DNA from: an uncultured virus (IMG/VR IMGVR_UViG_3300037993_000206)
Taxonomy: Duplodnaviria > Heunggongvirae > Uroviricota > Caudoviricetes
DNA length: 64,000 nucleotides
Strand: one strand, 5' to 3'
IMG/VR virus record: IMGVR_UViG_3300037993_000206
Numbering within the stretch: the stretch's first letter is position 1; each line of letters begins with the position of its first letter. A model generated the notes under the pieces. It did not search any database. It saw nothing but the letters and a program-made list of their open reading frames with translations, and was not told the origin of the DNA. The position numbers were made by a program, and so were the translations under genes. Positions 13,744 through 47,770 of the stretch are shown piece after piece.

Positions 13744-16700
13744 TTATCTTAACGCATTTAGAATATTATTTACAATTAAGAACGTAACAATCAAAAAGAT
13801 TGATATAGATAAAGTTAAAACTAGGGCCTTAATACTAATCGATTGGGCCTTAAATCTTAAAGCCAAAATTATAAGAATAACACCTGCTAACTCTATAGGA
13901 AGTAAGATTAAGAGTAAATTAGTACCGGCGTCAGGGGTTTTAGCATTTACGTCCCACCATCCTTCACTAGCACTTGAAGTCTGTTGAGTAGCAGGTGAAG
14001 CACTTATTACACATTTATAATATCTTTTAGTAAGCGACGACACGCCAGCCGTTCCACTGTAAGTCGCACCAGTTGCACCTGAAATATTAGAGTATGATGC
14101 GTCTGAATCGGCGGCTGATTGTTGCCACTGATAACTAGATGTTCCACTTATCCTTGCCCCCCTAGCCGCAGTTGCAGTTAATGGGGTATTTGAAGCACCT
14201 GTTGATGTGAGCGTGCAAGTATAATAAAACCCTGTCCCGCTATTAAAAGCCGTTCCACTTAAAGATAATTGGATTACATTAAAAGTCCCTTGAGTTGTAA
14301 CCGTTGAACCAGCGGTAATGGTTGGCGCACCAGTTGTTGAATCGGTGTAACTTGTTAAAGTTTGCCCTCCAACGGGTGAATATCCGCTATCTCCATCACC
14401 ACTTGATTTATTCCATTGATAAGTAACCGCAGCCGCAGGTCTAAGTCCATTTACGATTGTAGGCATGGCACTTTCGCCTTGCGCATTTGTAGCTGTTACT
14501 GTATATGAATAAGATGGGCCATTAGAAGCAGTTATACTACTCAGACTAAGGATTATATTCGTTGTACTATTCGTGGCAATCGTGGAACTTGCATTAATTG
14601 TAGGTGCATTGGCTGTAGTGTCATTATAAGTTGCAACATCCCCTACTGAAGTAAGTAATGAACCATTCCGATAGATATTATAACCTGTAGCATTATTAGT
14701 TGATTTCCAACCTAACACTACCTGAGTTGAATCATTCTGTGATGCACTTAATCCTGTTGGCGTATCTAATAAAGTATAGAAAGATACATCTCCACCATAT
14801 GAATATCCAGCACCATTATGGGCATAAGCCCTGACATGATACAACGTTCCCGAAGTTAAGCCTGATGCAATTGTTTCAGGGAATGACCCTATACCATAAG
14901 GTTGTCCGGCTGTCTCGATTATATGTGAGCCAGACACATCAGGATTTAAACCAACTCCATAACAAAGACCCCTTTCGTCTACGGATGTTGAGCCAGTTGA
15001 TGTAATGTTACCACCTGAAGTTGCTCCAATAGTTGTAATTCCAGTTACACCCGTTGTCGTTAAAATAGCGGGCGTGGTATCAACTGTAGCTTTGTACCCC
15101 GTATCAGCCGAAGATGTAACATCTGGCGAAACACCCGTTGCTGATAAAACTACTCTGTAATAATATACTGTTCCAGCCGTACCCGTTGTATCATTATAGG
15201 TACTCGTATTAGCAGAACCACCAAGTGAAGTATAGTCAGTCCCATTACTTGACCTATACCATAAATAGGTAGGTGTTCCATGTCCTCTATATCCAGCAGC
15301 AGGTGAACTAGGCGCACCTGCACCATTGGTATTGTAGGCAACTACGGTATATGAATCAGTAACCCCATTATTAAACACTGCATTATTTGTTAGTGTGGAA
15401 TAGGAAGTACTTGTACCATCCGTAGCAGCGGCAGCAGGTGTACCACCTATCGAATCCGTAATCGTAGGAGCATCTGCGCCCGAATCAACATAAGGTGAAG
15501 TCTGTGCGCCTAAATCAGAAGCGCCCCTGAATACATGGTATGAAGTTGCACCACTAACAGAATTCCACGAGATTGTAACACTAGATGTTGAAGTCCCTTG
15601 TGAGACTGTAACACCTGTAGGTGCAGGGAGATTTAAGTCACCTATGTTACTTTTTATAAATCTGGATTGGCCCTGATTTTCAAAAAGCATAGCCATTACA
15701 TAAAAATAAGTCCCATCGCTCATTACTTCATTTATCTGGAAGAATGAATCAGAATATCCACTATTAATAGTAAATGGAGTAATTGTGCTTAAATCTGACT
15801 TTATACGGTAGATGTTGTATATCCCGTTAGATGCTACAGTTTGGTCACTAACAATTATGTCGCCCGTACCATATCCATCCTTTGTTGTACCTGTAACAAA
15901 TGATGCACCATCAATTCCTTCGGTAGACGAAATCATAACACTGGTATATTGGCTTATATCTGACATAAGAAAACGATATAGATATCCAGCAATATTCCCT
16001 TGCTCGCCAAATACATAAAAATATGTTCCATCTGTAAGCCAATCATCTGTAAATGCTCCCGATATAGGTAAAGTTATTTGCTGAGTAATTGCTAATGTGG
16101 AAGGATTTATTTTTAATATTTTACTATAAACACTTGAACCTGTTGGGACTAATGCTGCATAAATACTCCCACCATAAACACCTATCGCATGAGCATAATA
16201 TGAACCTGTGACTGAAATAGCATTATCGGCTATAGTATTATCAGATATTTTTAAACTACCAAGAGGCATTGAATTAGATGTTGTTTTACCCATCCAATAA
16301 ATATAAGTATCGTCTGTACATGCATCCTCAATCGGCTGTTGATAGTACAAACTATTTTTCTGTATAAAACTTAAATCGGATTGATTAAGTTTATATAAGT
16401 AAAAATTACCATCTGGTTCTGAAATATTATATTCACCAATCCAAACATAACTACCTGACACAGCAATCGCATTTAAGTTACTAGTAAATGTAGCAGATGA
16501 ATAATCTGCGGCTACAGACATATCAGATGTAGCTACTTTTACAGTATGGTTTGTACCACCAACATAAAATCTGGATGAACTATAGATATTCCCTCCCGAT
16601 AATATAGTTGGGTCACCAGTATTGGCATTAGTTAAAACCGAAGATGCTACAGGAGTTATTGATGATGCTGTTGCAAGGGTAGTAAATGTTATTTCTCCTG

Positions 16701-18543: not shown

Positions 18544-18804
18544 TTAACTTTCTTTCACTGTTCTAAGGCATTGTTCACGTAGTAAGGCGTCACAGATATT
18601 TTTAACTCTATGTTCTTCTAATCCTTTACGTTCTGATATTTCATGGATAGTAGATGAACCATGCTCTGCTAAATCTGACATGATAATATAACGTGCTTTT
18701 GATTCATCGCCAACTGCATTCTCCACTTTTTCCTGCCCAATATCTGTTAAGCAAAACCTTTTAACTTTTGCACCACCACCTATTACTTTATCTAAAAATC
18801 CCAT
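18544..18804 (-). CDS. Winged-helix-like small protein
   Basis: L.EHG.STI.EISE...L....VK.I...L.....L pattern. Confidence 0.6.
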   Translation of the reverse strand: MGFLDKVIGGGAKVKRFCLTDIGQEKVENAVGDESKARYIIMSDLAEHGSSTIHEISERKGLEEHRVKNICDALLREQCLRTVKES

Positions 18805-19060: not shown

Positions 19061-20200
19061 TTACTCCTCTGTTTTTGCCATTTTCGGATTGATATTTTTA
19101 ATATCCTTAGAGTTGAATAAATTAAAGACTCCCATACATCTTACTATATTAGTAAACTCCCAATTATCATCATCCATTTTTAAATCTTTACCATGCATAT
19201 TCAATAACCTTAACCGACATTCATTAATATCTTCATCGGTTAAATCTGAAATCTCGTTTAAGTTTGCAAACCCATTTTTAGAACGGAGTACATCAACTAT
19301 TCTTTGTTCCGGTTCACCCATAATCATTTCAGGTCGCATTAATTGAACACCCATTTCAGGTCTAGGTTTTGCGCCATCAATAAATAAATTTTTAGACTTA
19401 GATTCAAATTGGACTACGCCATTTACACCCACATTAGCTAATCTACGAATCCGACAAAGTGTAGTATTACGGCGTGTTTTACACCACTCCGGCTTAACTT
19501 CATGCGTTACATATGCAAGAAAATTATTTTTATCGATCTCTTGAATATTCGGACACATACCCAATACAAGTAAGTCAAGGTGTCGCCAAACTGAAACAAC
19601 ATTTCCAATCATTTTACCGAGTTTATTATTAGGATTTCGGTTATACAAATATCTTTTAAGTTCATCTAATTCCAGAACGCCAGACTTCAAAAGCCTTTCG
19701 TTTTTTTCACGCCATTTTTTTGCCAAATATGAAACCGTATCACTATCTTTTTTATTTAATTTAGTTTCAGGTTCAAGTGTTTGTTTAAGATTAACATTTA
19801 ATTCAACTGCCATTTTATCAATTTCATTCATCATAAATTGGGGACTAAAATAAAGGTACTTATCTTCACGACCATAATCAAATATTCTTCTAGGTAAATA
19901 ATCCAGCATGACTTTTTTATTCTTAAAAAACCGGCGAAGTTTCCAACCCATATATGCACCAAAAACGCCTTTACCACAACCAGGTTTTCCGTGAACAATC
20001 ATTACACCCCGTGATAACAAAGCTAAAGAAGAAGCCATTACCATTTCACTCATAAGTAAACCGTCATTAGGCTTTAATCCATATAAACCATCAACACCTG
20101 CTTCTGGCGTATCGTCATAAATACTTTCTTCTGCAAGTTCGCCTAATTGTTCGGCTTCATCTCTTTGTTCTTGTATATCTTTTTGTTCTTGAGTTACCAT
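19061..20200 (-). CDS. P-loop ATPase, Zot/pI- or FtsK-HerA-like putative morphogenesis ATPase with C-terminal wHTH
   Basis: Walker A GKPGCGKG, Walker B LELDE, WRH motif. Confidence 0.75.
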   Translation of the reverse strand: MVTQEQKDIQEQRDEAEQLGELAEESIYDDTPEAGVDGLYGLKPNDGLLMSEMVMASSLALLSRGVMIVHGKPGCGKGVFGAYMGWKLRRFFKNKKVMLDYLPRRIFDYGREDKYLYFSPQFMMNEIDKMAVELNVNLKQTLEPETKLNKKDSDTVSYLAKKWREKNERLLKSGVLELDELKRYLYNRNPNNKLGKMIGNVVSVWRHLDLLVLGMCPNIQEIDKNNFLAYVTHEVKPEWCKTRRNTTLCRIRRLANVGVNGVVQFESKSKNLFIDGAKPRPEMGVQLMRPEMIMGEPEQRIVDVLRSKNGFANLNEISDLTDEDINECRLRLLNMHGKDLKMDDDNWEFTNIVRCMGVFNLFNSKDIKNINPKMAKTEE

Positions 20201-20569
20201 TTATTCAGCATCCTGACCCATTTCCGCTTCTTTAACATCACTTGCAAGTTGTTCTATTGCAGCGTCTTTAACCATAATATAGGCAAATTTCTTAGCACCC
20301 TTATTAGCACACAGATAAAAGTCCAACCATGTATAAACAAGCGGAATACGCATTTTTTTGCGTCTAAAATCCATAATAGCAGCTTTTGTCATTGAGTTAG
20401 CCATAGGTACAACCGCATCTAATGGCATCGGCGAAATTTCAGCTTGTTCAAATACAGAAGATGAACCAGGTTTATCAAATTTGTTAGGCTTACGCAAAAT
20501 ACGATTAGTAAGTTGCATAATTGCTTCTTGTGATTTTACACCTTCGGGATTTTCATCTTCATTACCCAT
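20201..20569 (-). CDS. Hypothetical protein
   Basis: ORF coupled to ATPase; GAGGT SD. Confidence 0.65.
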   Translation of the reverse strand: MGNEDENPEGVKSQEAIMQLTNRILRKPNKFDKPGSSSVFEQAEISPMPLDAVVPMANSMTKAAIMDFRRKKMRIPLVYTWLDFYLCANKGAKKFAYIMVKDAAIEQLASDVKEAEMGQDAE

Positions 20570-20747
20570 AGTTTACCTCTTTCAGTTTATCATCAGCTTC
20601 CATTTTACGTTTTATTGTTGAATAAGTCCTATTCCATAAATCCCATGTATCAGAACCATGATTACGACACGATGAATCAAATGCCTTTGCACCATAATAA
20701 GGTTTCCGCTTTTCTTTGCCTGATTCAATCGATTTATTAAGACTCAT
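20562..20747 (-). CDS. Small phage-type protein (SGKEKRKPYYGAKAFDSSCRNHG)
   Basis: ORF track; motif resembles a common small phage family. Confidence 0.6.
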   Translation of the reverse strand: MSLNKSIESGKEKRKPYYGAKAFDSSCRNHGSDTWDLWNRTYSTIKRKMEADDKLKEVNYG

Positions 20748-21376
20748 TAAGGTGCGCCAAAAGCTTGTTTTACAGCGGTTGCATTTTGCATCGCTGAATA
20801 ACTAAAATACAAACTTACACTTACCATTATTATAATAACTACAAATGCAATATAAACTACCCCTTTATTTAGATGTGCCGCTAAAGCCTCAGTTAGTTTC
20901 TTTTCCATCGCTAACATAGAGGCTGAAACTTTCTTTAAGATTAATTCAAATTCACCATCTATCGCCGCAAAAACAGATTCGGGTGTAACTAAAGGTGCTA
21001 AAGGATGAGAAGTAACCGGCTCTGGATTTCCTTTTCTATAAAATACTGTATCAATTTGCACACATAACCATGTAATGCCAAACATCGGGTCGGACGGATA
21101 GCGAGTTTTCCATGTGTTCTCTTTATCATAATAATAATGCGGTTCGTTACCTAAATCATCTTTTATGGCTATCCAATTTTTAGAAGTTCCTTTGGTAATA
21201 ACTCTTATATCAGGGTCACCACCTTCAGGAAGAATATAGACTTTGATTTTACCTACTACATCTTTTTGATACTGATTATGTTTGACAAACATGAAGATTA
21301 CTACGAAAAGAGCGATGAAGAAAAACATACCAAAAAGGATTAGACCGCTTAACGCCATTGTGGACAAATCAACCAC
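20747..21376 (-). CDS. Membrane protein with N- and C-terminal TM helices
   Basis: Hydrophobicity; promoter-like TTGACA at 21432-21437. Confidence 0.7.
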   Translation of the reverse strand: MVDLSTMALSGLILFGMFFFIALFVVIFMFVKHNQYQKDVVGKIKVYILPEGGDPDIRVITKGTSKNWIAIKDDLGNEPHYYYDKENTWKTRYPSDPMFGITWLCVQIDTVFYRKGNPEPVTSHPLAPLVTPESVFAAIDGEFELILKKVSASMLAMEKKLTEALAAHLNKGVVYIAFVVIIIMVSVSLYFSYSAMQNATAVKQAFGAP

Positions 21377-21441: not shown

Positions 21442-22284
21442 TTAACCCCCAAACAAAGAATCACGCTTTTGACTTCTACGTGTTGGTTTTTTGGCGTACT
21501 TCTCCATTAAAGATCTAGTTTGTTTCGCATCTTCATCATCTTCATCCCCTTCACCTTCTGTATATAAGGCATTTGCTTTTGCAAGTTTATCTTTACGATT
21601 AATACTCATAGTCCATAATGTATGTATCCAGATAGGTAATGCCAAACCAAAGAAACAAATAAGAATTGTAGTCCATTGAGCAGTACCAAACCATGTGTAA
21701 TTTCCATTCATATAAACGCCTACAAAAATCCAACCCAAACCACTTATAAATTTCATAAAATCAAGTTTAAAAACATACCCTATAGTCGTTAATATTCCCG
21801 CAAATAAAATTAAAGATAGTAATATCAAAACATTAGTCTCCTCGGAACCTGATTGGGTAGAAGTTTGCCAAGTTCCATCTGCATTTTGTCCCCATATCCT
21901 ATAATAAATTGTAAAAGGTGTATCACTTGTATCCGATATAGTGGAACTATCATCAAAATCAAGATTTACATTCGTATCACTAGCTGATAAATCACTCCCA
22001 TAATAAACTAAATAACCATCACTAGGTGCTGTCAAAATATCGGGTATATTAGCCGGATACCTACCATATTTACCTCTTATCATTACATTATTAGTTCCAG
22101 CACCTTTATCCCAAGTCATATTTACTTGTTTATCTGATACTGGAATTATAGTAAAGTTAGAAACACCCCCACTTACAAGCGGTACAACATTAATCGTAAC
22201 ACTTGCTGATGTTCCAGCATACACAGGCATTACATAAAATAATGCCAATACACAAATTAAGATTATTGTACTTGCCCATTTCAC
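21442..22284 (-). CDS. Secreted FN3-like domain plus three C-terminal TM helices
   Basis: Signal peptide VYA; TM segments. Confidence 0.7.
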   Translation of the reverse strand: MKWASTIILICVLALFYVMPVYAGTSASVTINVVPLVSGGVSNFTIIPVSDKQVNMTWDKGAGTNNVMIRGKYGRYPANIPDILTAPSDGYLVYYGSDLSASDTNVNLDFDDSSTISDTSDTPFTIYYRIWGQNADGTWQTSTQSGSEETNVLILLSLILFAGILTTIGYVFKLDFMKFISGLGWIFVGVYMNGNYTWFGTAQWTTILICFFGLALPIWIHTLWTMSINRKDKLAKANALYTEGEGDEDDEDAKQTRSLMEKYAKKPTRRSQKRDSLFGG

Positions 22285-23093
22285 TTGCTAAACTCGCTCA
22301 TATCAATAATCCATCGGATTGCATTACGAGTAACCATATTACCTTGCGGTTGGTACTCACCATAAACTGAAAGAAACTGGAAATGTTTATCTGAAACCAA
22401 TAGACCCGTTTCAACTAACGTATTAACATCATTCTGCCAACTATTGGAGCTAATTTGTGATGTGGTATTTGTAATATTGGTAGCAAAGTTAGCCATAATT
22501 GCGTCTTGTTGTGAGGTTAAGTTATCCGATAAATAATCCTTTCCTTTATCAGTAATAGAATAGAATCTACTACCATCCGGCATTACAAATTGCATTAAAA
22601 CATCTTTACTTGATTTTCCATTTACTGAAAAAATGTAATCACTGTAACCATCGTATGTTACCCAATCACTTATATCTTTTGGAGTTTTGGCATAAGTATC
22701 ATCAATCGAATTATAAGATTCTGTTGTTAAATGAAATTGTCTTAAAATATCTTGCCCATTGTGAACCTTAATAGCATATGTACAAACCAATCCTAACCTG
22801 TAATCAGAATATTCAATTTTGGCAGGATAGACCCAATCCGAATTATCCAACACTGTTGCAGTATCTAATTGAGATTGATATTGTTGAATTTGCTGATTAA
22901 GTTTATCAATCGTATCACTACTAGTCTGATTATCAGATTGTGCTTGTGATAGTTGAGTTTGTAAAGATTGAATCTGGTTATTCAAATCATCCACATTATA
23001 GGTAGGCATAGGCGGCGGGTCGTTAGAAACTGTACAAGCACTAACCAATAGTCCTAAAACTATGACAGATATTGCTATTAATATTAACTTCAT
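22281..23093 (-). CDS. Lipoprotein with coiled coil
   Basis: Lipobox LVSAC; Gln-rich heptads. Confidence 0.7.
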   Translation of the reverse strand: MKLILIAISVIVLGLLVSACTVSNDPPPMPTYNVDDLNNQIQSLQTQLSQAQSDNQTSSDTIDKLNQQIQQYQSQLDTATVLDNSDWVYPAKIEYSDYRLGLVCTYAIKVHNGQDILRQFHLTTESYNSIDDTYAKTPKDISDWVTYDGYSDYIFSVNGKSSKDVLMQFVMPDGSRFYSITDKGKDYLSDNLTSQQDAIMANFATNITNTTSQISSNSWQNDVNTLVETGLLVSDKHFQFLSVYGEYQPQGNMVTRNAIRWIIDMSEFSK

Positions 23094-23116
23094 TCTGATT
23101 TTCTTCCTTTAATATT

Positions 23117-23713
23117 TTAATGAGCAGTAGCAGTAATTGTTAAGGTATAAGATGAACCAGTACCACCAGTCCATGCACCTGTCTGAGTAGAGAACTGGAA
23201 ACCTACTTTAATATTAGTAGTTGCTCCTAAGTTAGAACTAAAATTTGCAAGTGTACTTGCAGAGCTTTTTAGTAATACTTTACTAGCAAATGTTTCTCCT
23301 GAATAGTACGCATACGCACTATAACTTGAGGCTCCGGCTGTTGCACCATTAACATTGGTCATTGGGTTACTACCACCGGAACCATCGCTCATATTCCCTG
23401 TTAAATCCGTTGAAATGCTTGATGTATTAGTAATACTGAATTGACAATCGGCATCAGCAACAGTTGAACCAGGAGCAACTGTATCTGCATGGCCTGATGC
23501 TTGTGTATAATAAGTGGTGTTAATTGCTAATGCACTATTACCCCCATCGTGACTATTTATTGTATAAGTAGTTGGCGTAATAGTAATAGCAATATAGGCC
23601 GGTGTTGCGGTCACTGTTACCGTAGCTGTAGTAGCTGCAAAAGACGGAATTACAAATAAAAGAACTAACGCAAATGCAAGCCCAAAAGAGATTAGAATTC
23701 TAATTTTATTCAT
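23117..23713 (-). CDS. Secreted beta-rich structural protein
   Basis: Signal peptide; ATVTVTATP start and LTITAT end; similar to C-terminal domain of 23736-24785. Confidence 0.7.
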   Translation of the reverse strand: MNKIRILISFGLAFALVLLFVIPSFAATTATVTVTATPAYIAITITPTTYTINSHDGGNSALAINTTYYTQASGHADTVAPGSTVADADCQFSITNTSSISTDLTGNMSDGSGGSNPMTNVNGATAGASSYSAYAYYSGETFASKVLLKSSASTLANFSSNLGATTNIKVGFQFSTQTGAWTGGTGSSYTLTITATAH

Positions 23714-23735
23714 CTTAATTACTCCTACTATATTA

Positions 23736-24785: not shown

Positions 24786-24853
24786 TCTTTAGAACAATAC
24801 CAATCAGAATAAACGGTAATAGTTTTTAAATATTCTCATAGGCTAAAAACCTT

Positions 24854-25891: not shown

Positions 25892-26257
25892 CTAACCATC
25901 AAACACATTAGGGTCACGCTGTTTTTTATTCGCTACTTTATGCCCAATTTTGTAAGCTCTCTTAACAGAATACCCCTTTTTAATAAGAGGCTTCATAGTA
26001 TCCATTTCCACAATTTCATGCCTCACATCCATAACTTTCCGTTTTAAAGTCTTACAATGTTTGGGGTCATAACCGATTGAACCTTTAACCTCAAAACCTA
26101 CAATTTCAGAGACAAGGGGATGATTTGCCCGATATTTTGTAGGCGTTAATCTTTTATCTTTGCGTATTTTTAAACCCCGTTTATGCGCTTCTTTTTTTAG
26201 AACTTCAAACTGTTTTTTAAGTGTCATTAAAGTTCCCCCTAGATAAATTCTTTCCAC
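25892..26257 (-). CDS. Basic protein with HExxE motif (start probably MTLKK)
   Basis: RHEIVE; similar to GHEKYE in 51065-51394. Confidence 0.6.
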   Translation of the reverse strand: MERIYLGGTLMTLKKQFEVLKKEAHKRGLKIRKDKRLTPTKYRANHPLVSEIVGFEVKGSIGYDPKHCKTLKRKVMDVRHEIVEMDTMKPLIKKGYSVKRAYKIGHKVANKKQRDPNVFDG

Positions 26258-35548: not shown

Positions 35549-35551
35549 GTT

Positions 35552-39457: not shown

Positions 39458-40756
39458 CTATGGATTTAAAATTCTTCCACATTCGACTGTTCTGTAAGAC
39501 TTATCTTTAGTGTTTGGTAGTTGCTTACTTTCTGTTTCACGGTCAATCGCTACCTTATATGGTAGGCTTACATCGACTCCACAGACGTTTATTCCCGATG
39601 AACCACCGGTATTTAATTTATCTAACCCATACTGGTATATATTTTGAGCCGCATTTTCATCCCTATCGTGTTTAACACCACAATTAGGGCAAACCCAATT
39701 TCTATCATCTAATGTCATCCCTTTAAATATATAATGGCAATCACTACACATTTTACTTGAAGGGTAACTTGTAGGGATTAAGATTAATCTTGAACCATAC
39801 CACTTTGTTTTATATTCAAGCATCTCTCTAAATATACCCCAACCTGAATCTGAAATCGACCTACCTAATATTTTATTACGCTTCAGATTTTCCACTTTTA
39901 AATCTTCGATACAAATAACTGACTTGGTTTTCGCCAGTTGACTTGTTAATTTTGCAATAAAATCATGTCTTGTATTCTCAATATGTTTATGACATTTAGA
40001 TAATTGGATATTAGCTTTATGCCTATTATGTGACCCCTTTTTAGTCCTTGCTTGTTGTTGTGCTAATATTTTTAAACGAGATAATTTTTTACTCAATGAC
40101 TTATGATGTTCAACTATATCTATACTATTACCATCATAAGTGGTTAAATAGTTCTTCAAGCCCACATCAATGCCGATGACACCCCCATTGTTTTTAACAT
40201 CGGTAATCTCTTTTGATACCTTTAGACAACAATACCAACGTTCAGATTCTTTTTTAATTGTTACATTTAATATTTTACCACTAAAACTACTTGTATCTTC
40301 TTTAACCCTTACAAATCCAATCTTGGGTAAATGTATTTTATTCCCATCTAGTCTTAATGTACTAGTTTTTCCATCGGCGACATTATTTGTTAATCTAAAG
40401 CTATCCCGTTCACCTTTCTTTTTAAACTTAGGTCTGCCATATTTTTTAGAATGATTTTGGATACGCCTAATTAAATCTGCGTATGCTCTATCTAAATCTT
40501 GTAATGATTCTTGTGCTACACATTTGGACACATCTAACATCCACGGATATTGGTTATACTTTATACTATTTAATTCAATATTCTGTTTATAAAACGAAGT
40601 GAACCGTTCCTTACCTTGTTTAGTATTATAAAGTTCAATCCGTTTCGCTAATCCCCAATTCCATACGAATCTTGAAGTCCCACAAGACTTTATAAACGCA
40701 GTCTTTTGTTTATTATTGGGATTCAATTCATATTTATATGCTTTTAAAACTATCAT
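39458..40756 (-). CDS. tnpB: IS607-type RNA-guided nuclease TnpB (copy 2), no transposase adjacent
   Basis: AYKYEL.P, RFVWN, GIDVG, ICIEDL, CSDC..CPNC, RDENAA. Confidence 0.95.
   Translation of the reverse strand: MIVLKAYKYELNPNNKQKTAFIKSCGTSRFVWNWGLAKRIELYNTKQGKERFTSFYKQNIELNSIKYNQYPWMLDVSKCVAQESLQDLDRAYADLIRRIQNHSKKYGRPKFKKKGERDSFRLTNNVADGKTSTLRLDGNKIHLPKIGFVRVKEDTSSFSGKILNVTIKKESERWYCCLKVSKEITDVKNNGGVIGIDVGLKNYLTTYDGNSIDIVEHHKSLSKKLSRLKILAQQQARTKKGSHNRHKANIQLSKCHKHIENTRHDFIAKLTSQLAKTKSVICIEDLKVENLKRNKILGRSISDSGWGIFREMLEYKTKWYGSRLILIPTSYPSSKMCSDCHYIFKGMTLDDRNWVCPNCGVKHDRDENAAQNIYQYGLDKLNTGGSSGINVCGVDVSLPYKVAIDRETESKQLPNTKDKSYRTVECGRILNP
39467..39615 (-). ncRNA. Predicted omegaRNA of tnpB2 (scaffold ending ...AGAACAG at 39487, guide 39486-39467)
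   Basis: Aligns to tnpB1 end (AAGTCTTACAGAACAG vs AAGTCTTATGGAACGG); 5' boundary approximate. Confidence 0.6.
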
Positions 40757-40757
40757 T

Positions 40758-40889
40758 TTAACTATTCTTCTTTAGATAATCGCTAACCGCTATTCTCACT
40801 AAAACGCTAACATTAACGCATTTTTGTGTTGAAAGTATTTTTAATTTTTCTATTTGTGATTTATCCATGTAATAAGATTGTTTTTTCAT
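40758..40889 (-). CDS. Ribbon-helix-helix (CopG-like) regulator, 43 aa, directly upstream of tnpB2
   Basis: Hand-translated MKKQSYYMDKSQIEKLKILSTQKCVNVSVLVRIAVSDYLKKNS; beta-strand plus S.LVR.AV..YL helix. Confidence 0.7.
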   Translation of the reverse strand: MKKQSYYMDKSQIEKLKILSTQKCVNVSVLVRIAVSDYLKKNS

Positions 40890-40901
40890 ATCCACATCTT
40901 A

Positions 40902-40944: not shown

Positions 40945-40975
40945 AAAAGAAAGGGTGAGTTTTTACGCTCACCCC
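40945..40975 (-). terminator. Intrinsic terminator of the split capsid-like gene
   Basis: GGGTGAG-loop-CTCACCC followed by TTTCTTTT, 20 nt after stop. Confidence 0.75.
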
Positions 40976-40995: not shown

Positions 40996-42248
40996 TTATT
41001 CCTTAGTACCAGCACCAGCGTTCTTCCACATTCTGTACGTTCTCTTAATCTTTCGATAAAGCGTGGACTATATTTTTATCCATCTTTTTCAGTGGATACA
41101 GCCTCTATAGTCTCTATGCATTGGCGGGTTCATTCCCCGTTTTAGTTTGGGATTACCATGCCCAATTTATTTGGGTTTAGGTTCAACCAAGTTAGGGCTG
41201 AGAGCCATCTAAGATTACTCTTAAATGCGGCCAGTATATCGACCATAACCAATAACGGAACCATAATCACAATTGCCGCAACGTATATGCATCTAATCTT
41301 TCGATATAGTATGGACTATACTTTCATCCGTTTCAGGATGCCCAACCTCTAGTCTCTACACATGATATCTGGTTCACTTCCAGACCTAGCTAGGGATTAC
41401 CATGACCATTATTGGTTTTAGGTTCAACCTAATTTGTTGGGAATTTTTACATCTACGATTACTCGTAAAGTTGGCCTGATTGACCAAAAGGAAAACGGCT
41501 TTGATTACTCATGTCACTCACATTTCTATGAGGTTCGGACTCTATCACATTCCTCTTTAAAGGAATCTCGCCGCCGAGTCTCTCCGCATGGCCTATCTTC
41601 AATTGATAGATTAGTTCGGTGGTTAACTTGCCTATTCTTTATTTTCTAGGTTTAGTTTTCCCCGACTTTGACGAGTTATTCGATGCACATTACTATGCAA
41701 AGACCCTAATCAGTTAAGGTACTACCAGTATCCGTACCGGAAATGCTAAATCTGTAATCTTATCTTTCGATAAGTGTCGGAACATATCATTACCCATCTA
41801 AGTGGGTATCCCCTCTATGTTCTCTTTGCGTTTCACCATTCATTTTGGTGTTTAGTTCTCGATTGGCTTACATCTTTTTAGATGATTAGCGTTCCAAGAG
41901 TTAGGGGGATTTTTCAACCTCAATTACTTGAGGAAGCGGCCATTTCTTTAACCGTCGGAGTTACGAAGTTCGCAATAACCAAGAAAACCACGATTGAAGC
42001 CACCATAGTAGCAAGCGATTTAATTTATGTTCTCCCATTTTTCAATGGATATCGGACTTTTTCTTTATCCTATAAAGGATAGTCCCTGTTAAGTCTCTGC
42101 ACACGCCCGAAGTTCATTTCTTCTGCTTGGCTCAAGATTACCATGACTCATTTCTAAGTTTTAGATTCCCTTGAATTTAAGGACTTCATTGACCTACAAA
42201 TTACTTTGTAGTCGGGCCTCGCTATTCACCCGTCATGAGGTGGCCCAT
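40996..42248 (-). CDS. Intron-split putative major capsid or envelope protein; exons 42248-42228, 42015-41951, 41745-41717, 41507-41483, 41289-41242, 41041-40996; product MGHLMTGLATMVASIVVFLVIANFVTPTVISGTDTGSTLIKAVFLLVIYVAAIVIMVPLLVMVTYRMWKNAGAGTKE (77 aa; 81 aa from ATG 42260)
   Basis: Exons joined at P1 U-G sites and terminal G give 234 nt in one open frame; two hydrophobic helices with a polar linker; own promoter and terminator. Confidence 0.8.
41042..41241 (-). ncRNA. Group I intron 5 (200 nt; alternative 3' splice site at 41033)
   Basis: P1 GGU/GCC, P2 GUAA loop, CCUAA..AUGG receptor, P7 GACUA/UAGUC, P9 GAAA loop. Confidence 0.9.
41290..41482 (-). ncRNA. Group I intron 4 (193 nt; 3' end set by frame)
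   Basis: P1 UUGGU/GCCAA, P2 GUAA, P7 GACUA/UAGUC, P9 GAAA. Confidence 0.9.
41508..41716 (-). ncRNA. Group I intron 3 (209 nt)
   Basis: P1 ACCU/GGGU, P10 UAAUCA/UGAUUA, P7 GACUC/GAGUC, P9 GAAA. Confidence 0.9.
41746..41950 (-). ncRNA. Group I intron 2 (205 nt)
   Basis: P1 CGGU/GCCG, P10 CAUUUC/GAAAUG, P7 GAACA/UGUUC, P9 GAAA. Confidence 0.9.
42016..42227 (-). ncRNA. Group I intron 1 (212 nt)
   Basis: P1 CGGGU/GCCCG, P10 CUUGCUA/UAGCGAG, P7 GACUU/AAGUC, P9 GAAA. Confidence 0.9.
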
Positions 42249-42373: not shown

Positions 42374-42403
42374 ATTTTATCACTGGTTATTGGTTAATGT
42401 CAA
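42374..42403 (-). promoter_or_regulatory. Promoter TTGACA-N18-TAAAAT for the split capsid-like gene
   Basis: Motif match with extended TG. Confidence 0.65.
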
Positions 42404-42442: not shown

Positions 42443-44584
42443 TTAAATAATAGTGAGTAGATTATAGATGATTAAGAATGAAATAATAGCGAAGATTAGC
42501 ATAGAAGCGGTTATGGCTAATGCCTTTACAGAACCATTGGCACGAATACGTATAATACCTACAAAGATAGCAATAGCTGCAACTTCTAATGGAATTAATG
42601 CCCAAAATATAGACCTAGAAGAATCTACGGGATATGAAACTAATGTTTCAGTTCCTATATTAATGTAAGTTCCTAACATATTTAAGTTTTCAGCCGCCGC
42701 CCAATTAGCGTCTACTGAGGATGTACTTATTCTAACCTCATCTATAATTCCGTTGAAATAATCGGATGCACCATTATAATAAGCCCCGATATTAAATGAG
42801 TTACTTTGATAAGGCGTAATTGCCGTACTAGATAAAGTGGCGGTATCAGCCGTTCCATTAATATAGATTCGCATGGTATTATCAACACCAATAGTAGCTT
42901 GAATCAAATACCAATTCCCTACTATTAAAGAAGTATTACCTTGAAGATATTGGTCAGTTGACCCATTACCAACCCCAAAAACGACCACATTATTAGCCCC
43001 ACTAGTCCGTAATCCTAAATATATTCCCGTAGCGGCGGTAGGACTAGAATTAGCTATAATTGAATTATAAGTTGAAATTGAACCGATTGGCTTAACCAAC
43101 GCTGTTAAGGTAAGTTGAGGCATGGAAGTACCAGGACTAGCCGTGATACCAATTACCTTTACGATACTTGAACCATTCGCTACGATGGCTTCTGTTGAAC
43201 CAACTAATCTAACACCAATAGTAGTACCACCAATTTGATTTGTTGAAGTATAAGTTGCAACACCAGTACCGACTGTGATTATTTTACAAAGTCCGGTTGA
43301 ACCTTCTGTGAATAGTATATGAGTATCGTCAGTCCATTCAAGATTATATATATGAGTTCCTAACCCACTATAAGTATAGCTGGTTACTTTTGTACCATAA
43401 TTTATTACTTGAATATCATTTGCACCATATTCTGCTAATGCTATTGTCAAATTTCCGCTGATTACTCTAGTAGCAACATCATTCGGCCTGTTAAATCCAG
43501 TCATCGTCCATAATACACTTTGATTTGCTCTACTTATTAATGTAAGCGAATTTGCACTCATATTAATAACCATAACCGAATCGTCCGTTGTGGTAAGAGT
43601 AACTGGTCTACAATATATTTCAGTTCCACTTGTATTATAAGACCATACTCTAGTTCCAGCAGGATTCAATTCATAAACATACCCACCACCATCACCATCT
43701 GCTGTTAGATAGTCACCATTAGAATATTTATAGACCGATTCCGGCCCATCCGTAGTAACTGTATCTGTTGGGCTATTATATTGGAATACTGCAACACCTG
43801 TTTTGGGATTAACTTCACCTATTCCCGTATGACCGGCACTTCCCCTAGCTACTGCATAAAGAATATTACCATTTGGAAGTAACATAGCCTGATAAATATT
43901 ACCCGTTATAGTATAGGGAGTTAAATCATATCTTTGAAGAATACCGTAGTTCCATGTAACCGGAATATATTGAGAAGATGTTGCTGTGAAACTCTGCCCG
44001 TTACCAACTTGACCTGCAATAGTAGGCGGATTTGCCGCTCCATTTTTAGCGATACTACCCATTGTTGATTGCATTGAATCATAGATATGAGAAGTATCTA
44101 CATAGTCGTCCATATGTCCAACAAATAAATGAGAAGAACTCCAAACATTAGATACTCCATAAGAATAAGTTTGACCATCTGTTGCGGTCGGATTATCGTA
44201 ATAAAACCAAAAATATGAAGTATTAACTGATGCCGAAATAGAAGGGACTTGAATCCATACTGTAGCTAATTGACTGACTGAGTTCCACTGTTCTATTTCA
44301 TAATTTAAGGAATTGAAATTTGAATCAGCAAAGCGAATATCCGCACCGCTGGATTGACAACGACTAAAGTTAAAATTAGTGCTATTTAATTGTAGCAAAA
44401 CAACAAAGTTAGTTAGAGTTTCAGGTATTGTTGCATTTAAGATTGATATTTTACGAACATAGGTATATCCAGTAAAACTAGAAGTAGCTTGTACTTTTTG
44501 TGGTTGATTTATACTGAATAGGCTTAGTAAAAGCACCAAACCTACTAATATAAAACCACTACGTTCTAAATATCGTTTTAACAT
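42443..44584 (-). CDS. Surface protein: DUF2341-like domain, beta-propeller insert, LamG/ConA-like domain, C-terminal double TM anchor
   Basis: GADIRF...L.YEIEQW...VWIQVP (DUF2341); F.GIIDEVRIS (LamG); signal peptide. Confidence 0.8.
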   Translation of the reverse strand: MLKRYLERSGFILVGLVLLLSLFSINQPQKVQATSSFTGYTYVRKISILNATIPETLTNFVVLLQLNSTNFNFSRCQSSGADIRFADSNFNSLNYEIEQWNSVSQLATVWIQVPSISASVNTSYFWFYYDNPTATDGQTYSYGVSNVWSSSHLFVGHMDDYVDTSHIYDSMQSTMGSIAKNGAANPPTIAGQVGNGQSFTATSSQYIPVTWNYGILQRYDLTPYTITGNIYQAMLLPNGNILYAVARGSAGHTGIGEVNPKTGVAVFQYNSPTDTVTTDGPESVYKYSNGDYLTADGDGGGYVYELNPAGTRVWSYNTSGTEIYCRPVTLTTTDDSVMVINMSANSLTLISRANQSVLWTMTGFNRPNDVATRVISGNLTIALAEYGANDIQVINYGTKVTSYTYSGLGTHIYNLEWTDDTHILFTEGSTGLCKIITVGTGVATYTSTNQIGGTTIGVRLVGSTEAIVANGSSIVKVIGITASPGTSMPQLTLTALVKPIGSISTYNSIIANSSPTAATGIYLGLRTSGANNVVVFGVGNGSTDQYLQGNTSLIVGNWYLIQATIGVDNTMRIYINGTADTATLSSTAITPYQSNSFNIGAYYNGASDYFNGIIDEVRISTSSVDANWAAAENLNMLGTYINIGTETLVSYPVDSSRSIFWALIPLEVAAIAIFVGIIRIRANGSVKALAITASMLIFAIISFLIIYNLLTII

Positions 44585-44684: not shown

Positions 44685-46635
44685 TTAACGTAATCCCAAA
44701 ACTATTAGTAGTAAAATTACAAAGCCCAAAGATAAACCTATAACCCATAAGACCTTATTATCCCATCTTAAAAATGGTTTAGGTTGTTTCGGTTGCTCTA
44801 AATTTGAACCCTGTTTATTTTGTTCCTTGATTTCTTCTTTCATCATTGGAACTACTGTATCTAACTGATTATCTTGTGGTGTTTTTATAATATCCTCATC
44901 CGATTTGACACCATGTTCTTCGCTCACTTGTGGTCTAATATCTTCGGATACACCTTGAGGACTTATTGGGCTTTTGGGAGTACATCTTCAAACTTTTTCA
45001 CATCATCTTTAGTGATTGTTTGAGACTCACCTTTATTATTTGAAGGACTTGAATTGGGTCGTTTTGCACCAATGCCATACGAACCATTCTGCAAGGAACT
45101 AACCAATGTACGAATAACCAACTCGCAAGTTCTCATTCTACCATCGTTCATTACTTTAGGGGAATAATCAGTATCCATTTGGACTTCTACATTTACACCA
45201 CCAGCCAATACTACATTATCCATATCAGGCGGTGGAACTAACGGAGCGTTTGAAGTCGCATCATCTGAAATTACCTTTTCTGAAATACCGTTTGCCCCAA
45301 TTCTTGAACCAATGAACGTGCCTGCTTGTGCTGAACCTAGTTTTTCACCTTTACGAATCCACGGATTAAATCTGTCCATATGTTTTGTTTCACTATCCTT
45401 TTTAATCTCACGACTTTCTGCCGCCAGAGATTTTAAGAGCAACCTTTATTTCAAAGCATCTGTTTTGTTTCTGATTCGTTTTGGAATATCAATTCGTGAT
45501 TAGCTATATAATCTGCGTTATCTTCTCTACCCAATAAAACTGCATCATCGGGTATTTTATTTATCCATTCCTTCAGTGTTTTGGCATTAAGATAACGATA
45601 CGTTCCAATCCGATATTTAGTTCTAACAATCTTCGTCTCTAATATTCGACTAAATCCAGTTTCTATATCCATTTTATTTTACATCCTGTTTAGGTTTTAA
45701 TCTATCGTCCCAACTATCACATTTTTCTTGAATATCTTTAATAGTTTTACAGGGTTTAGAAACATTAGTAAGTGACCAGAATGATTGGATATTTTCCTGG
45801 TCAAACTTTTTGACGCAACAACGATAGCACTCAGATGATTTTCCATCCAAAGATATATTGCTTCGGACTAGATTATTACACAATACACAGATACCCATTA
45901 TATTTTAAACTCCTGTTCACCATTCCATTCTTTACGCATCTCTTTGATAGTCAAATTAAGGTTGTGAAGTTTCTCACCACAAACTCTAATGGCGTCTAAC
46001 GCTTTTTCAAATTCTACTTTATTAATATAGTCGCCAACTTCAAATTGCCACACATCATTATTAGAAACTGCAACCACAAAAACATATTCATCTTTGAAAC
46101 AAAAAGGATATTCAGTAAAATAAGAAGTCGGGAGTCTTTTATCGCATATATCGTAGCACGAAAAGTCTAAGATTTTGTAGCACTTTTCACCACGATAGAC
46201 AACCTTTTTAGTTTTGATTCCTAGTTCTATTGCTTGCATCTTTTATTCCTCTTTTTCGCTATCCCGAATAATTTTCTCAGCATCAGTACGATGTTCTGAA
46301 AGTTGTAATTGTTCGGCCTCTGTAATTGGACGTTCATCTACTTTTTCACCCGTTTTTGCGTCATAATAATTAACTGTATTAGTACCATAGACTACCGTAA
46401 CTTCAACATTTTGAGGGATAAATCCCGCTTTTTTAGTCGCTAATGCTTGTGCTACATTGTCGTGTTCACGTTTAATTGCATCTTTCAATGGTTTCTTCTG
46501 TTCATCTAAATCTGCAATATTCATTTCAAGTTCATATATTCTATCATAAGCTGTAGCGATATCATTAAGCAATTCTACTTTTTGTTCTTGAGTTAAAGGT
46601 TTTTGAATCTGTATTGTTTCTGTTAATTTGTTCAA
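44685..46635 (-). CDS. Run of six small hypothetical genes (44685-44927, 44963-45442, 45451-45672, 45674-45898, 45898-46239, 46243-46635)
   Basis: Tightly coupled ORFs; grouped. Confidence 0.55.
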
Positions 46636-46648
46636 CTTAAAACCTCAC

Positions 46649-47770
46649 TTAATTAGTTTGGAAACCAACAATTTTTAATATTGGCACAGCATAAAAAGTT
46701 AAAGAATTTAAGTTTAAAGCGCCATTGGGGTCTGTCACTATAGGTAAGGTAATTGTTAAAGTAGAGTAGTAACTTGATGTACCTGGATTTTGCGTGAATT
46801 GCCAGATGCCACTAAGAATTGAGTTAGTTGAACCCGTTGCCCATGCGGTATAAGTTGGGTCGTTTCCGGCATTAGACCATTGTGGGTTACCCATTGAACT
46901 CATAGCATAAGTTACACCACTAGGAAGCGTGACTTGCGTACCATCATTTTTGATAAACACAAACGCAAGTTGTAATTGGATATTAGAGATTGTTTTGCCT
47001 GTTTGGTTCTGAATTTGAAGTTGAAATTGCTGTGAACTGGTAGCTTCAACCCATTGTTTTGTTGAACCATTAACTGCTACCAAAGTTGCGGTATTAGTAG
47101 GTGGAGTAGCATTAGCAGATAACAAGCCATCTTGTGTTGGAGTGAAAGTTAAAACAGTAGGAGCCGATGTATTCCCGTTAAAGATAGTATTATAGGAATA
47201 GGAAATAATTTGTGCTGTAACTTGCCCGTTAGTTGCGACACCCGTTCCGGTTGCCCCACCTGAAGAACTAGAGGTTGAAGTAGGTGTAGGGGTTGATTGC
47301 AAGGCCGTAACATTAGAAGTTAATGTAGTGATTTGTGCGGTTAATTGTGCGATTTGTTGCTTTAAGGCAGTTACATCGGCTTGCTCTGAAGTTCCCGCAT
47401 TTGTAACTGAAGTTTGTAAGGTACTTACCTCTGATTTCAAATTATTAATATCATTCTGGTCACTACTTGAATTTTTAAGGGTATTGACATCATTTTCAAG
47501 AGTAGTTACTTGATTAAGTGCTTGAGTAATGGTTTCACTCGTTGGCATACTTTTAATTTCAGTTTCTAATGCTGTTATCCGAGCATCTAACTTTCCATCG
47601 GTAGAATCGTTATTACGTGAGGCAGTTTCCAAAGCAGTTACACGGTCAAACAAAGTTGGAGCGGAAGTTGCGGCAGGGGCAGGTTTAGCGGCGCAACTTG
47701 CTAAAAGAACGGCAATAATTAAAGAGCAAAGGATAACCATAGCGACCTTAAACTTTTTTGTTTTGAACAT
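46649..47770 (-). CDS. Lipoprotein with long coiled coil and beta-rich C-terminal domain (fibre or spike-like)
   Basis: Lipobox LLASC; RITALE heptads. Confidence 0.75.
   Translation of the reverse strand: MFKTKKFKVAMVILCSLIIAVLLASCAAKPAPAATSAPTLFDRVTALETASRNNDSTDGKLDARITALETEIKSMPTSETITQALNQVTTLENDVNTLKNSSSDQNDINNLKSEVSTLQTSVTNAGTSEQADVTALKQQIAQLTAQITTLTSNVTALQSTPTPTSTSSSSGGATGTGVATNGQVTAQIISYSYNTIFNGNTSAPTVLTFTPTQDGLLSANATPPTNTATLVAVNGSTKQWVEATSSQQFQLQIQNQTGKTISNIQLQLAFVFIKNDGTQVTLPSGVTYAMSSMGNPQWSNAGNDPTYTAWATGSTNSILSGIWQFTQNPGTSSYYSTLTITLPIVTDPNGALNLNSLTFYAVPILKIVGFQTN

Follow-up and report, generated by a model that had tools for sequence, protein, structure and literature searches.

A gene module of membrane and secreted proteins, including a tiny two-helix protein gene split by five predicted group I introns, in a putative large non-tailed virus of bacteria

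Among described systems, the closest precedent is the IME1 elements of Dehalococcoidia, for which the authors propose budding or filamentous particles (Nesbo et al., bioRxiv 10.64898/2026.09.15.751708). Compared by description only, within that part of the source, IME1 and the element analysed here are both bacterial dsDNA elements without tailed-phage hallmarks, and both show a pI/Zot-like ATPase beside several small hydrophobic and signal-peptide/transmembrane (TM) proteins. On the same description, IME1 is smaller (21-28 kb; the contig here has at least 86.75 kb), has another gene order (the ATPase precedes the small TM proteins in IME1 and follows them here) and encodes a tyrosine recombinase, a resolvase and a primase-helicase, which were not seen in the present window. 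Introns, a giant protein and a glycosylation set are present here and are not reported for IME1 in that part of the source. The locus shares with the Fuselloviridae a large end-filament-like protein, and differs from them in its bacterial-type host signals and in having at least five times their genome size; the DnaA-like ATPase of SSV1 aligns with the present ATPase at the Walker A only. The genomes of the Inoviridae (M13 pI/Zot) are ssDNA of 5-15 kb and encode a rolling-circle Rep. Their ATPase is probably of the same fold class as the present one, small membrane-inserted coat-like proteins occur in both, and assembly is presumed to take place at the membrane in both. In Staphylococcus phage Twort, orf142 is a phage gene with three group I introns; there, as here, group I introns interrupt a phage protein gene and their presence or absence differs between related strains, whereas the present gene shows five paralogous ORF-less introns within a 234-nt coding sequence.

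The window, that is, the whole stretch of DNA analysed, comprises 64,000 bp of the 86,750-bp contig that bears the ATPase gene, and the source of the DNA element is peat. With a probability of about 50%, the window carries the membrane-protein kit of a large, non-tailed, membrane-assembled dsDNA virus of a bacterium. It would contain most of the late (morphogenesis) half and part of the early half of a virus genome of at least 86.75 kb, whose particle would be built at the cell membrane and not as head and tail. The element would produce particles, which may be spindle-shaped, pleomorphic or filamentous. Every element listed in the initial annotation is present in the sequence, and the region 13744-47770 forms a coherent module, parts of which recur with the ATPase in related contigs. 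From the interpretation given there, the coherent module, the bacterial-type signals and the real spliced protein stand; homology to SSV1/His1 capsid proteins and a Chloroflexota host, for which the hints are weak, are not supported. The main genes of the window are the following:

993..10686, minus strand: glycan gene set, outside 13744..47770, common to relative L005
13744..18291, minus strand: 1515-aa secreted fn3-containing protein with C-terminal TM anchors; 5 loci
18544..18804, minus strand: 86-aa HTH-like (wHTH) protein after the ATPase; 11 loci
19061..20200, minus strand: 379-aa ASCE P-loop ATPase, Zot/pI-, HerA- and B204-like
20201..20569, minus strand: 122-aa soluble protein, encoded at a conserved position between the genes of the 209-aa protein and the ATPase; relatives in 6 loci
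20747..21376, minus strand: 209-aa protein with N- and C-terminal TM segments; BLAST relatives in 21 of 54 loci
21442..25345, minus strand: five secreted or anchored proteins of 280, 270 (lipobox), 198, 349 and 163 aa (dockerin)
26239..26655, minus strand: 138-aa soluble protein, conserved beside membrane proteins; 8 loci
26666..27208, minus strand: 180-aa membrane protein with a small domain common with phage virion/baseplate proteins; 10 loci
27237..29348, minus strand: 703-aa protein with a signal-like N-terminus, a dockerin-like repeat and three C-terminal TM segments; 10 loci
29395..30681, minus strand: 428-aa protein with a signal-like N-terminus and three C-terminal TM segments; 4 loci
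30674..35173, minus strand: 1499-aa giant protein with one central hydrophobic segment
37128..38630, minus strand: 500-aa polytopic protein, GT-C/protein O-mannosyltransferase (PMT)-like; relatives in 3 loci
39458..40898, minus strand: inserted IS-like unit, a small DNA-binding-like ORF and TnpB
42443..44584, minus strand: 713-aa DUF2341 and LamG protein with a signal-like N-terminus and two C-terminal TM segments
44685..47770, minus strand: start of the minus-strand unit, with genes for a 373-aa coiled-coil lipoprotein and for six small proteins

The P-loop ATPase noted initially shows a deviant Walker A (GKPGCGKG), to which the strict pattern G....GK[ST] does not match, and a Walker B-like VLELDE. 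No Pfam family was found for it at E<=10 and the curated Zot (PF05707) match is absent; weak Pfam Zot matches appear in seven of 67 family members (best E 3.1e-4). The fold of its AF2 model (pLDDT 88.6) ties among Zot/pI, STIV B204 and the non-viral HerA and RecA, the top BFVD matches being Inoviridae Zot proteins (E 2.4e-8), and an hhalign comparison with M13 pI aligns 82 columns from the Walker B onward (E 4.3e-4). A Kyte-Doolittle scan shows no hydrophobic segment in the protein, whereas pI has its own TM segment; the two-TM 209-aa protein is usually encoded two genes upstream of the ATPase. No ORF of the window matched the pIV secretin, pIII or Rep families. At the membrane, this soluble Zot/pI-, HerA- and B204-like ATPase may power DNA loading or particle extrusion. 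Its family contains 134 metagenomic relatives at E<=1e-3 among 1.84 billion representatives and is found in 54 metagenome loci. No relatives were found in the IMG/VR set searched or in GenBank phages, and two pattern scans of 185,579 GTDB species-representative genomes did not find the element.

The order of the core next to the ATPase is kept in the long loci, while the giant protein and the secreted-protein block shift position. The 209-aa protein gene precedes the ATPase gene, with one small soluble-protein gene between them, in all eight long loci and in most of the mid-sized loci mapped. Relatives of the 280-aa protein were found in eight of the 54 ATPase loci, and the L005 homologue of the giant protein bears a NUDIX domain. 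Signal-peptide and TM proteins are as frequent as first described: the Kyte-Doolittle scan of the 35 ORFs in 13744-47770 gives at least one hydrophobic segment in 18, many with an N-terminal signal-like segment and two or three C-terminal segments. Lipobox-like N-termini, read by eye, are found at 22281-23093 and 46649-47770, in agreement with the lipoproteins annotated. The tiny protein described below, the 180-aa and 209-aa membrane proteins and several large signal-peptide, C-anchored proteins would enter the host membrane. A small two-helix hydrophobic protein, a non-terminase ASCE ATPase and many anchored secreted proteins together fit a membrane-associated, non-tailed morphogenesis.

Terminase, portal, HK97 capsid and tail genes, reported as missing at the outset, were indeed not found: Pfam and PHROG scans of the 87 window ORFs (51 minus-strand and 36 other) gave no match to terminase, portal, HK97/DJR capsid or tail families. 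Neither were tailed-phage or DJR hallmarks found among ORFs of at least 90 aa within +/-10 kb in the eight long related loci (125 proteins against Pfam, 100 of those against PHROGs; the 25 rows left out of the latter are mostly glycan-enzyme genes and duplicate homologues). The only structural hint in the window scan is a domain of about 60 aa in the 180-aa protein, similar to giant phage virion/baseplate proteins (E 1.7e-6 and weaker). Since 22.7 kb of the contig lie outside the window, tailed-phage or other capsid genes are possible there, and the caveat made at the outset that the window is partial stands. The loci scanned likewise cover the related contigs only in part. The window could therefore come from a large tailed phage (Caudoviricetes) with its terminase, portal, capsid and tail genes in that remainder, the module being an accessory membrane/surface block, e.g. 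for glycan conversion or superinfection exclusion in the style of Gtr-type serotype-converting phages. This is consistent with GtrA/GtrB-like PHROG matches (phrog_841, E 1.4e-24), with tail, baseplate or virion PHROGs matching the domain of the 180-aa protein and the 782-aa protein of L042, and with the 1499-aa protein followed by several structural-looking genes, which recalls a tape-measure region. The ESM Atlas clusters nearest the 209-aa protein are labelled Viruses at 82-100%, and where a phylum is given, for few members (7, 35 and 17), the automatic label is Uroviricota, which was counted against the non-tailed reading. Large tailed phages typically carry group I introns, inteins and HNH genes; the window contains five group I introns, a LAGLIDADG intein in an RNA ligase, HNH genes and TnpB, a load of selfish elements which also counts as virus-like support for the preferred reading. 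However, a tailed phage seems rather unlikely: the core order is kept across loci of 36-58% GC, far beyond an accessory block, no hallmark was found within +/-10 kb in the eight long loci, and the only ATPase is not terminase-like. Moreover, signal-like N-termini and triple C-terminal TM anchors after the giant protein are unlike cytoplasmically assembled tail parts, and the minus-strand late unit opens, at a divergent promoter region, with neither packaging nor head genes. Against the preferred reading, replication, integration and lysis genes were not recognised in the 64-kb window.

Glycosylation genes are present in the window and also in long ATPase loci. The 500-aa protein shows nine hydrophobic segments and no Pfam match at E<=10; against PMT_2/TMEM260-like clusters, it has an ESM Atlas feature score of 0.98, with 180 shared features and a structure TM of 0.76. 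The glycan set at 993..10686 contains an epimerase, two B12-radical-SAM proteins, a SPASM radical SAM protein, two GT2, a GT2-GtrA/DPMS fusion and a GtrA. The element's polyprenyl-phosphate-sugar synthase (the GT2-GtrA/DPMS fusion) and its PMT-like GT-C transferase may glycosylate Thr/Ser-rich exposed parts, with virion proteins as the probable targets.

The tiny protein with two hydrophobic helices and an ISGTDTGST linker, pointed out in the initial annotation, is real, and its gene is predicted to comprise six exons; 23 homologues are uninterrupted. The linker motif lies at about 41744 (minus strand), inside a 1.7-kb stretch without a long ORF. Introns make up 81% of the gene, and exons range from 21 to 65 nt:

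42374..42403, minus strand: sigma-70-type promoter driving the tiny gene, TTGACA-18-TAAAAT, its -10 preceded by TG
40996..42248, minus strand: tiny gene, 77-aa (or 74-aa) two-helix membrane protein; six exons (234 nt) and five predicted group I introns (1019 nt)
42228..42248, minus strand: exon 1, 21 nt, from ATG 42248, by comparison with relative X14
42016..42227, minus strand: group I intron I1, 212 nt; RF00028, 73.3 bits; missing in X14
41951..42015, minus strand: exon 2, 65 nt, first hydrophobic helix
41746..41950, minus strand: group I intron I2, 205 nt; RF00028, 34.2 bits; exactly skipped in X14 (joint 41951|41745)
41717..41745, minus strand: exon 3, 29 nt, ISGTDTGST linker
41508..41716, minus strand: predicted group I intron I3, 209 nt; RF00028, 44.8 bits
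41483..41507, minus strand: putative exon 4, 25 nt
41290..41482, minus strand: predicted group I intron I4, 193 nt; RF00028, 39.3 bits scanned alone
41242..41289, minus strand: exon 5, 48 nt, second hydrophobic helix
41042..41241, minus strand: predicted group I intron I5, 200 nt (or 209 nt, with the 3' site at 41033); RF00028, 21.9 bits alone
40996..41041, minus strand: exon 6, 46 nt including the stop codon; frame backed by C-terminal likeness to homologues
40952..40975, minus strand: terminator-like hairpin and T-run after the tiny gene

The near-identical relative X14 (95-99% identity) lacks exactly I1 and I2, which leaves the reading frame open; both have exact junctions. Around the exon 1 junction, the T-G-L-A-T codons show only synonymous differences between the two, and the start cannot be further upstream because X14 has a 2-nt deletion at 42253. 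The P10 pairing of I1, read from sequence, is CUUGCU/AGCGAG. The junctions of I3 to I5 are predicted from P10 pairing, reading frame and homologues: the 3' splice site of I3 is suggested by the pairing UAAUCA/UGAUUA and the conserved 'STL' of the homologues, and that of I4 is the only one that would keep the hydrophobic frame, with weak P10 support. With a gathering score of 50 bits for RF00028, I1 and the merged I4 and I5 match (51.1 bits) reach it, and I2, I3, I4 and I5 singly fall below; the core of I5 aligns with those of the other four. All five show the P1 U.G pair at the 5' splice site (alignment columns 6:17) and end in G, and 35 of 49 consensus pairs keep pairing despite changes on both sides. 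They are ORF-less and mutually paralogous and are predicted to be self-splicing; no further introns were found elsewhere in the window. From the strong sigma-70-type promoter, a 1.25-kb precursor RNA would be made, from which the introns would splice themselves out, and the 234-nt message would be translated into an alpha-helical hairpin of 74-77 aa, its short loop rich in Thr, Ser and Gly.

An HMM built from the 23 uninterrupted homologues (62-69 aa) gives the spliced product 16.6-19.3 bits; all the homologues have the same two-helix topology and the linker I(S/T)GTD..STL. Two of these lie on ATPase-bearing loci, L038 and L054, the latter with three tandem paralogues. The AF2 model (pLDDT 78) shows helices at 2-27 and 32-61. 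In architecture, the protein resembles SSV1 VP1/VP3: a pair of hydrophobic helices with a short polar, Thr/Ser/Gly-rich linker between them in about 60-90 aa, a proline in or near the start of the second helix, and tandem paralogues, here in L054. Homology to SSV1/His1 capsid proteins, as first suggested, was not borne out: profile and fold comparisons with viral capsid proteins gave nothing significant (hhalign against SSV1 VP3, probability ~1%, E 0.055), and fold searches with the hairpin returned unspecific matches. None of the 23 members matched a capsid PHROG; the best match (E 0.038) was to a family without known function, and a weak match to phrog_21447, 'virion structural protein', was seen for one member (E 0.28). 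For the role of major virion protein, as coat or envelope matrix, the tiny protein is the best candidate.

As initially described, the expression signals are of bacterial type. Exact TTGACA-N16-18-TAnnnT promoters number 13 in the window, against 3.9 +/- 1.9 (maximum 9) in 200 shuffles; nine lie wholly inside intergenic DNA, which makes up 11% of the window, and eight are just upstream of a same-strand gene and share an extended -10. Looser promoter consensus scans showed no enrichment (99 vs 86.9 and 78 vs 84.5). Terminator hairpins are seen after genes, and a loose terminator scan was not above shuffles. SD-like 4-mers precede 52 of 83 starts, compared with 8.7 +/- 2.6 at random places. The 713-aa protein gene has its own promoter and an upstream terminator, and another minus-strand unit runs out of the window from a promoter at 676-648. 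Were the bacterial-looking signals chance in AT-rich DNA, the element could be an archaeal spindle or pleomorphic virus. A tandem two-helix hydrophobic protein, anchored glycoproteins, a small ATPase and own glycosylation are best known from archaeal viruses; ATV ORF286 and AMDV2_16 are among the BFVD fold matches of the ATPase, and relatives contain RGP-family and dolichol-type DPMS-like domains. SD sites occur in many archaea too and do not exclude an archaeal host. Such a virus is nevertheless very improbable, given the exact TTGACA, set at a fixed distance from an extended -10 and lying upstream of genes in intergenic DNA, the lipobox-like signal peptides, the hairpin-plus-T terminators and the PMT-like clusters nearest the 500-aa protein, all 98-100% bacterial. 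Group I introns in protein genes, as here, are mainly found in bacteria and their phages.

The locus might also belong to no virus: it could be part of an element of plasmid-like or integrative kind, or a cellular island, whose product would be a glycosylated cell-surface structure or a secretion/transfer apparatus with a pilin-like two-helix subunit and an assembly ATPase. No capsid gene was recognised, surface glycosylation genes are abundant, no element matched in the IMG/VR set searched, and the small two-TM subunit (compare a VirB2-like pilin), together with the ATPase and the polytopic proteins, loosely recalls type IV secretion. Against this, relaxase, VirB4, VirD4 and VirB6 families have no match in the window and the long related loci, and the species-representative genomes lack the element in both pattern scans. 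Dense small ORFs of unknown function, the five introns, the intein and the HNH genes, Atlas neighbours labelled as viruses and one-directional gene units under a common promoter motif also make a non-viral origin fairly improbable.

If the preferred reading of a membrane-assembled bacterial virus holds, the locus may, tentatively, be the first sighting of a widespread and diverse lineage of enveloped or extruded dsDNA viruses of bacteria with large genomes of about 45-90 kb. Their coat would be a fusellovirus-like two-helix membrane protein, their motor a pI/B204-class ATPase, and their surface a virus-glycosylated set of anchored proteins. In the present member, five paralogous group I introns without ORFs would have colonised the putative coat gene, their spread probably due to reverse splicing into sites ending in GGU on a single, very abundant mRNA. 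Such a lineage would escape standard virus detection, with no member in the IMG/VR set searched, GenBank phages or GTDB genomes, and would be a bacterial counterpart to the archaeal spindle and pleomorphic viruses.

The window, with ~35% G+C over 64 kb, shows two gene sets: one long run of minus-strand genes from 47770 down to the window start, and a plus-strand set, mostly of small ORFs, from 47880 to the window end. No tRNA gene was found in the 64 kb, and Pfam and PHROG searches of 51 minus-strand and 36 further window ORFs show no terminase, portal, capsid or tail family, as the initial annotation had stated for terminase, portal, HK97 capsid and tail genes. The families matched are fn3, dockerin, DUF2341/LamG, two TnpB, an intein-bearing RNA ligase and HNH-like genes, and a glycan gene set lies at 1-10.7 kb. 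The features discussed here are:

9155-10252: GT2-GtrA/DPMS fusion
11625-12905 and 39458-40756, minus strand: two TnpB genes (49% mutual identity)
19061-20200, minus strand: P-loop ATPase, 379 aa
30674-35173, minus strand: giant protein, 1499 aa
37128-38630, minus strand: PMT-like protein, 500 aa
40996-42248, minus strand: tiny gene, encoding a two-helix membrane protein of 77 (or 74) aa
48236-50062, plus strand: RNA ligase gene, with Intein_splicing (E 1.5e-10), LAGLIDADG_2 (E 6.4e-23) and RNA_ligase (E 1.1e-18) domains

The RNA ligase gene is split by an intein with a LAGLIDADG homing endonuclease domain. The second TnpB gene is directly downstream of the tiny gene and is preceded by a small ORF (40758-40898), DNA-binding-like and under a TTGACA promoter of its own; between this TnpB and the next gene are two short, very hydrophobic ORFs of 54 and 42 aa (39083-39376, minus strand), which fall outside the 60-aa ORF list. 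Two stretches, 51400-52580 and 35174-35640, contain no ORFs of 60 aa or more and no Rfam families at E<=0.01, and the latter contains a late-type promoter at 35548-35520.

Hydrophobic segments are present in 18 of the 35 ORFs of 13744-47770, usually one at the N-terminus, signal-like, and two or three more at the C-terminal end, and two ORFs show lipobox-like N-termini; the signal-peptide and transmembrane proteins and lipoproteins described earlier are thus confirmed. The dsDNA viruses known from bacteria are nearly all tailed or icosahedral, and membrane-built, capsid-less particles were long regarded as largely an archaeal speciality. The best reading of the window is a large non-tailed, membrane-assembled bacterial virus, with a probability of about 0.5. 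The ATPase protein is recorded on a JGI contig 86,750 bp long, which leaves 22.7 kb outside the window, and automatic labels on the Atlas clusters nearest to the 209-aa two-TM protein read Uroviricota; both points support a rival reading, a tailed phage with its head and tail genes in that remainder, which is rather unlikely. The last 50 bases of the window have no exact match in IMG/VR, and the public runs containing the stretch are mostly peat metagenomes.

At E<=1e-3, a search of 1.84 billion representative proteins yields 134 relatives of the ATPase, and its family is encoded by 54 metagenome loci of 36-58% G+C, eight of them long. These eight loci, scanned for ORFs of at least 90 aa, show no capsid, terminase or portal among 125 proteins by Pfam, 100 of which were also searched against PHROG; the sole tail-category PHROG match is a short shared domain in a 782-aa protein of locus L042 (phrog_11699, minor tail protein). 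Gene order in the ATPase-proximal core is conserved in the long loci. Around the ATPase, the recurring genes start with an anchored protein of the 703-aa type, joined by a 428-aa type in half of the long loci; next come a membrane protein of 180 aa, a soluble one of 138 aa, a two-TM protein of 209 aa and a small soluble protein; the ATPase itself is followed by a small HTH-like protein, large secreted proteins, a polytopic protein of 450-500 aa and finally glycan genes. The position of a giant protein of 1400-2000 aa, with a small two-TM gene after it, varies: in some loci the pair is upstream of the anchored proteins, in others it follows the 180-aa protein. The giant protein of the window has no Pfam match and no word-sharing relatives among 5.8 billion proteins; its homologue in locus L005 (2-2272) contains a NUDIX domain at residues 301-409 (E 6.6e-10). 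In locus L048, the 138-aa-type and 209-aa-type genes of the conserved core flank an HNH/NUMOD-type homing-endonuclease-like gene (3419-4960). No relatives turned up in IMG/VR, whether the query was the ATPase, the giant protein or an alignment of the ATPase, tiny-protein or 180-aa family, and GenBank phages showed no tblastn match to the ATPase or giant protein.

The P-loop ATPase noticed initially is borne out, with a deviant Walker A, GKPGCGKG. Its top BFVD fold matches are Zot proteins of Inoviridae, and an hhalign comparison with M13 pI covers 82 columns, starting at Walker B (E 4.3e-4, probability 34%); on these matches, the ATPase probably belongs to the motor class of non-tailed viruses and DNA translocases, not of terminases. 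SSV1 B251 aligns at Walker A only, and PDB sequence searches gave only Walker-A-level matches. A non-viral surface or transfer element is improbable.

The ISGTDTGST motif of the tiny gene is inside a 1.7-kb stretch without a long ORF. In two loci encoding ATPase relatives, uninterrupted genes specify proteins of the same plan (63 and 67 aa) whose linker resembles I(S/T)GTD..STL; a profile built from both retrieved 23 proteins, 62-69 aa long and all lacking Pfam domains. The spliced product scores 16.6-19.3 bits against the homologue HMM, aligned over its whole length, with a second helix 6-9 residues longer than in the homologues, and AF2 models the family as a two-helix hairpin (pLDDT 78); the tiny two-hydrophobic-helix protein proposed from the window therefore holds. 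Its supposed likeness to spindle-virus hairpin capsid proteins is shown for the design, not for homology. SSV1 VP1/VP3 show the same layout (helix, T/S/G-rich linker, second helix) and, like the tiny protein, a proline in or near the start of the second helix, and three tandem paralogues in locus L054 (2-782) recall the VP1/VP3 pair. Comparison of the family with SSV1 VP3 by hhalign gave ~1% probability, and no capsid PHROG was matched, one member weakly matching a 'virion structural protein' family (E 0.28). Fold searches with the modelled 63-aa hairpin returned generic helical hairpins, with neither SSV1 VP1 nor pilins prominent, a result neutral on a capsid relationship.

Rfam searches of the whole 64-kb window place group I introns in the ISGTDTGST stretch and nowhere else, and none is present in the eight long related loci. 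One Rfam match comprises two introns in tandem. The five intron copies (I1-I5) show 64% mean column identity, a consensus structure with 35 of its 49 pairs maintained via double changes, a U.G pair at every 5' splice site, and no internal ORFs. A 385-nt relative contig, from an RNA library of another habitat and 95-99% identical to the window, joins 41951 straight to 41745 and bridges 42232 to 42006 by 13 different letters. Because bridge and flanks encode T-G-L-A-T-M in frame, identical residues with synonymous changes, I1 is assigned to 42227-42016 and I2 to 41950-41746. This relative cannot carry I1, since its codon preceding the I1 site has a final A instead of U, and intron content consequently varies between strains; I3 is still present in the relative. 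The same relative decided the 5' splice site of I1, for which AAAAAU and CACCU were rejected in favour of ACGGGU. For I1 and I2, the first six exon bases pair, as read by eye, with bases just 5' of the internal guide; by this rule the 3' site of I3 would follow G41508, supported by the leucine of 'STL', which spans the junction, and the 3' sites of I4 and I5 are predicted from the reading frame only. The predicted exons measure 21, 65, 29, 25, 48 and 46 nt (234 nt in total), and the introns 212, 205, 209, 193 and 200 nt. Another open frame for exons 4-6, with a Cys-rich, non-hydrophobic tail, was rejected because the second helix, present in all 23 homologues, would be lost. Runs X2-X4 contain only fragments identical to the window, with no junction information, and runs with small shares of the stretch, including one viral metagenome, were left out. 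GGU precedes four of the five introns (exon ends 42228, 41951, 41483 and 41242) and the guides are GGCC-type; as an idea, this would fit reverse splicing into similar sites of one mRNA.

Expression signals are bacterial, as proposed from TTGACA-type promoters and SD sites. Exact TTGACA-N16-18-TAnnnT occurs 13 times (3.9 +/- 1.9 in shuffles), nine times wholly within intergenic DNA, which is 11% of the window; eight copies are just upstream of a same-strand gene, with a common TGATATGAT/TGATATTAT extended -10. A looser consensus scan of the window showed no enrichment. SD-like words precede 52 of 83 starts (8.7 expected), and the tiny gene has its own promoter and terminator. The promoter at 648-676 (minus strand), with the late-gene TTGACA...TGATATGAT motif, points out of the window start, and at least one further unit of this class therefore lies on the rest of the contig. 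A bacterial host is indicated by the promoters, SD sites, terminators and lipoboxes, as well as by the bacterial clusters nearest to the PMT-like protein; with these signals on one side and the SSV1-like hairpin layout on the other, an archaeal virus is very improbable. The Chloroflexota part of the earlier host proposal is reduced to a weak hint, this being the commonest label in several PMT-like clusters, and dockerin repeats weakly hint towards cellulolytic Firmicutes. Scans of GTDB genomes with the ATPase and tiny-protein alignments were empty and thus give no provirus-based host, and TnpB is uninformative, since all its matches in phages and plasmids are below 40% identity and spread over many phyla.

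The 500-aa protein has no Pfam match; its nearest clusters are bacterial, of PMT_2/TMEM260-like O-mannosyltransferases (feature score 0.98, structure TM 0.76). Together with the GT2-GtrA/DPMS fusion, this protein suggests that the element encodes a lipid-linked sugar pathway active outside the membrane. Seven of the eight long loci, all except L042, have glycosyltransferases, methyltransferases or radical SAM enzymes. On the minus strand of the window, three radical SAM genes at 2341-7051, two B12-binding and one SPASM, are next to glycosyltransferases, and the SPASM homologue of L005 (18517-20751) is intein-bearing.

For the membrane-assembled bacterial virus, the nearest precedent is IME1, elements of Dehalococcoidia for which a 2026 preprint proposes small membrane-built, capsid-less particles (bioRxiv 10.64898/2026.09.15.751708); these elements are much smaller, and the likeness drawn is one of description. 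Literature searches, as far as text was accessible, found neither this family described nor a gene so dense in introns. If this reading is true, a conserved family of 45-90-kb elements would add to the ways in which bacterial viruses are known to be built, would represent a whole lineage missed by current virus-detection pipelines, and would offer a testable case for principles common to bacterial and archaeal viruses. The 234-nt coding sequence with five putatively self-splicing introns, present or absent from strain to strain, would be an extreme natural system, usable to study intron spread without homing endonucleases and the splicing of 25-29-nt micro-exons. By encoding an O-mannosylation-like pathway of its own, the element suggests that protein glycosylation in bacteria can be virus-directed.
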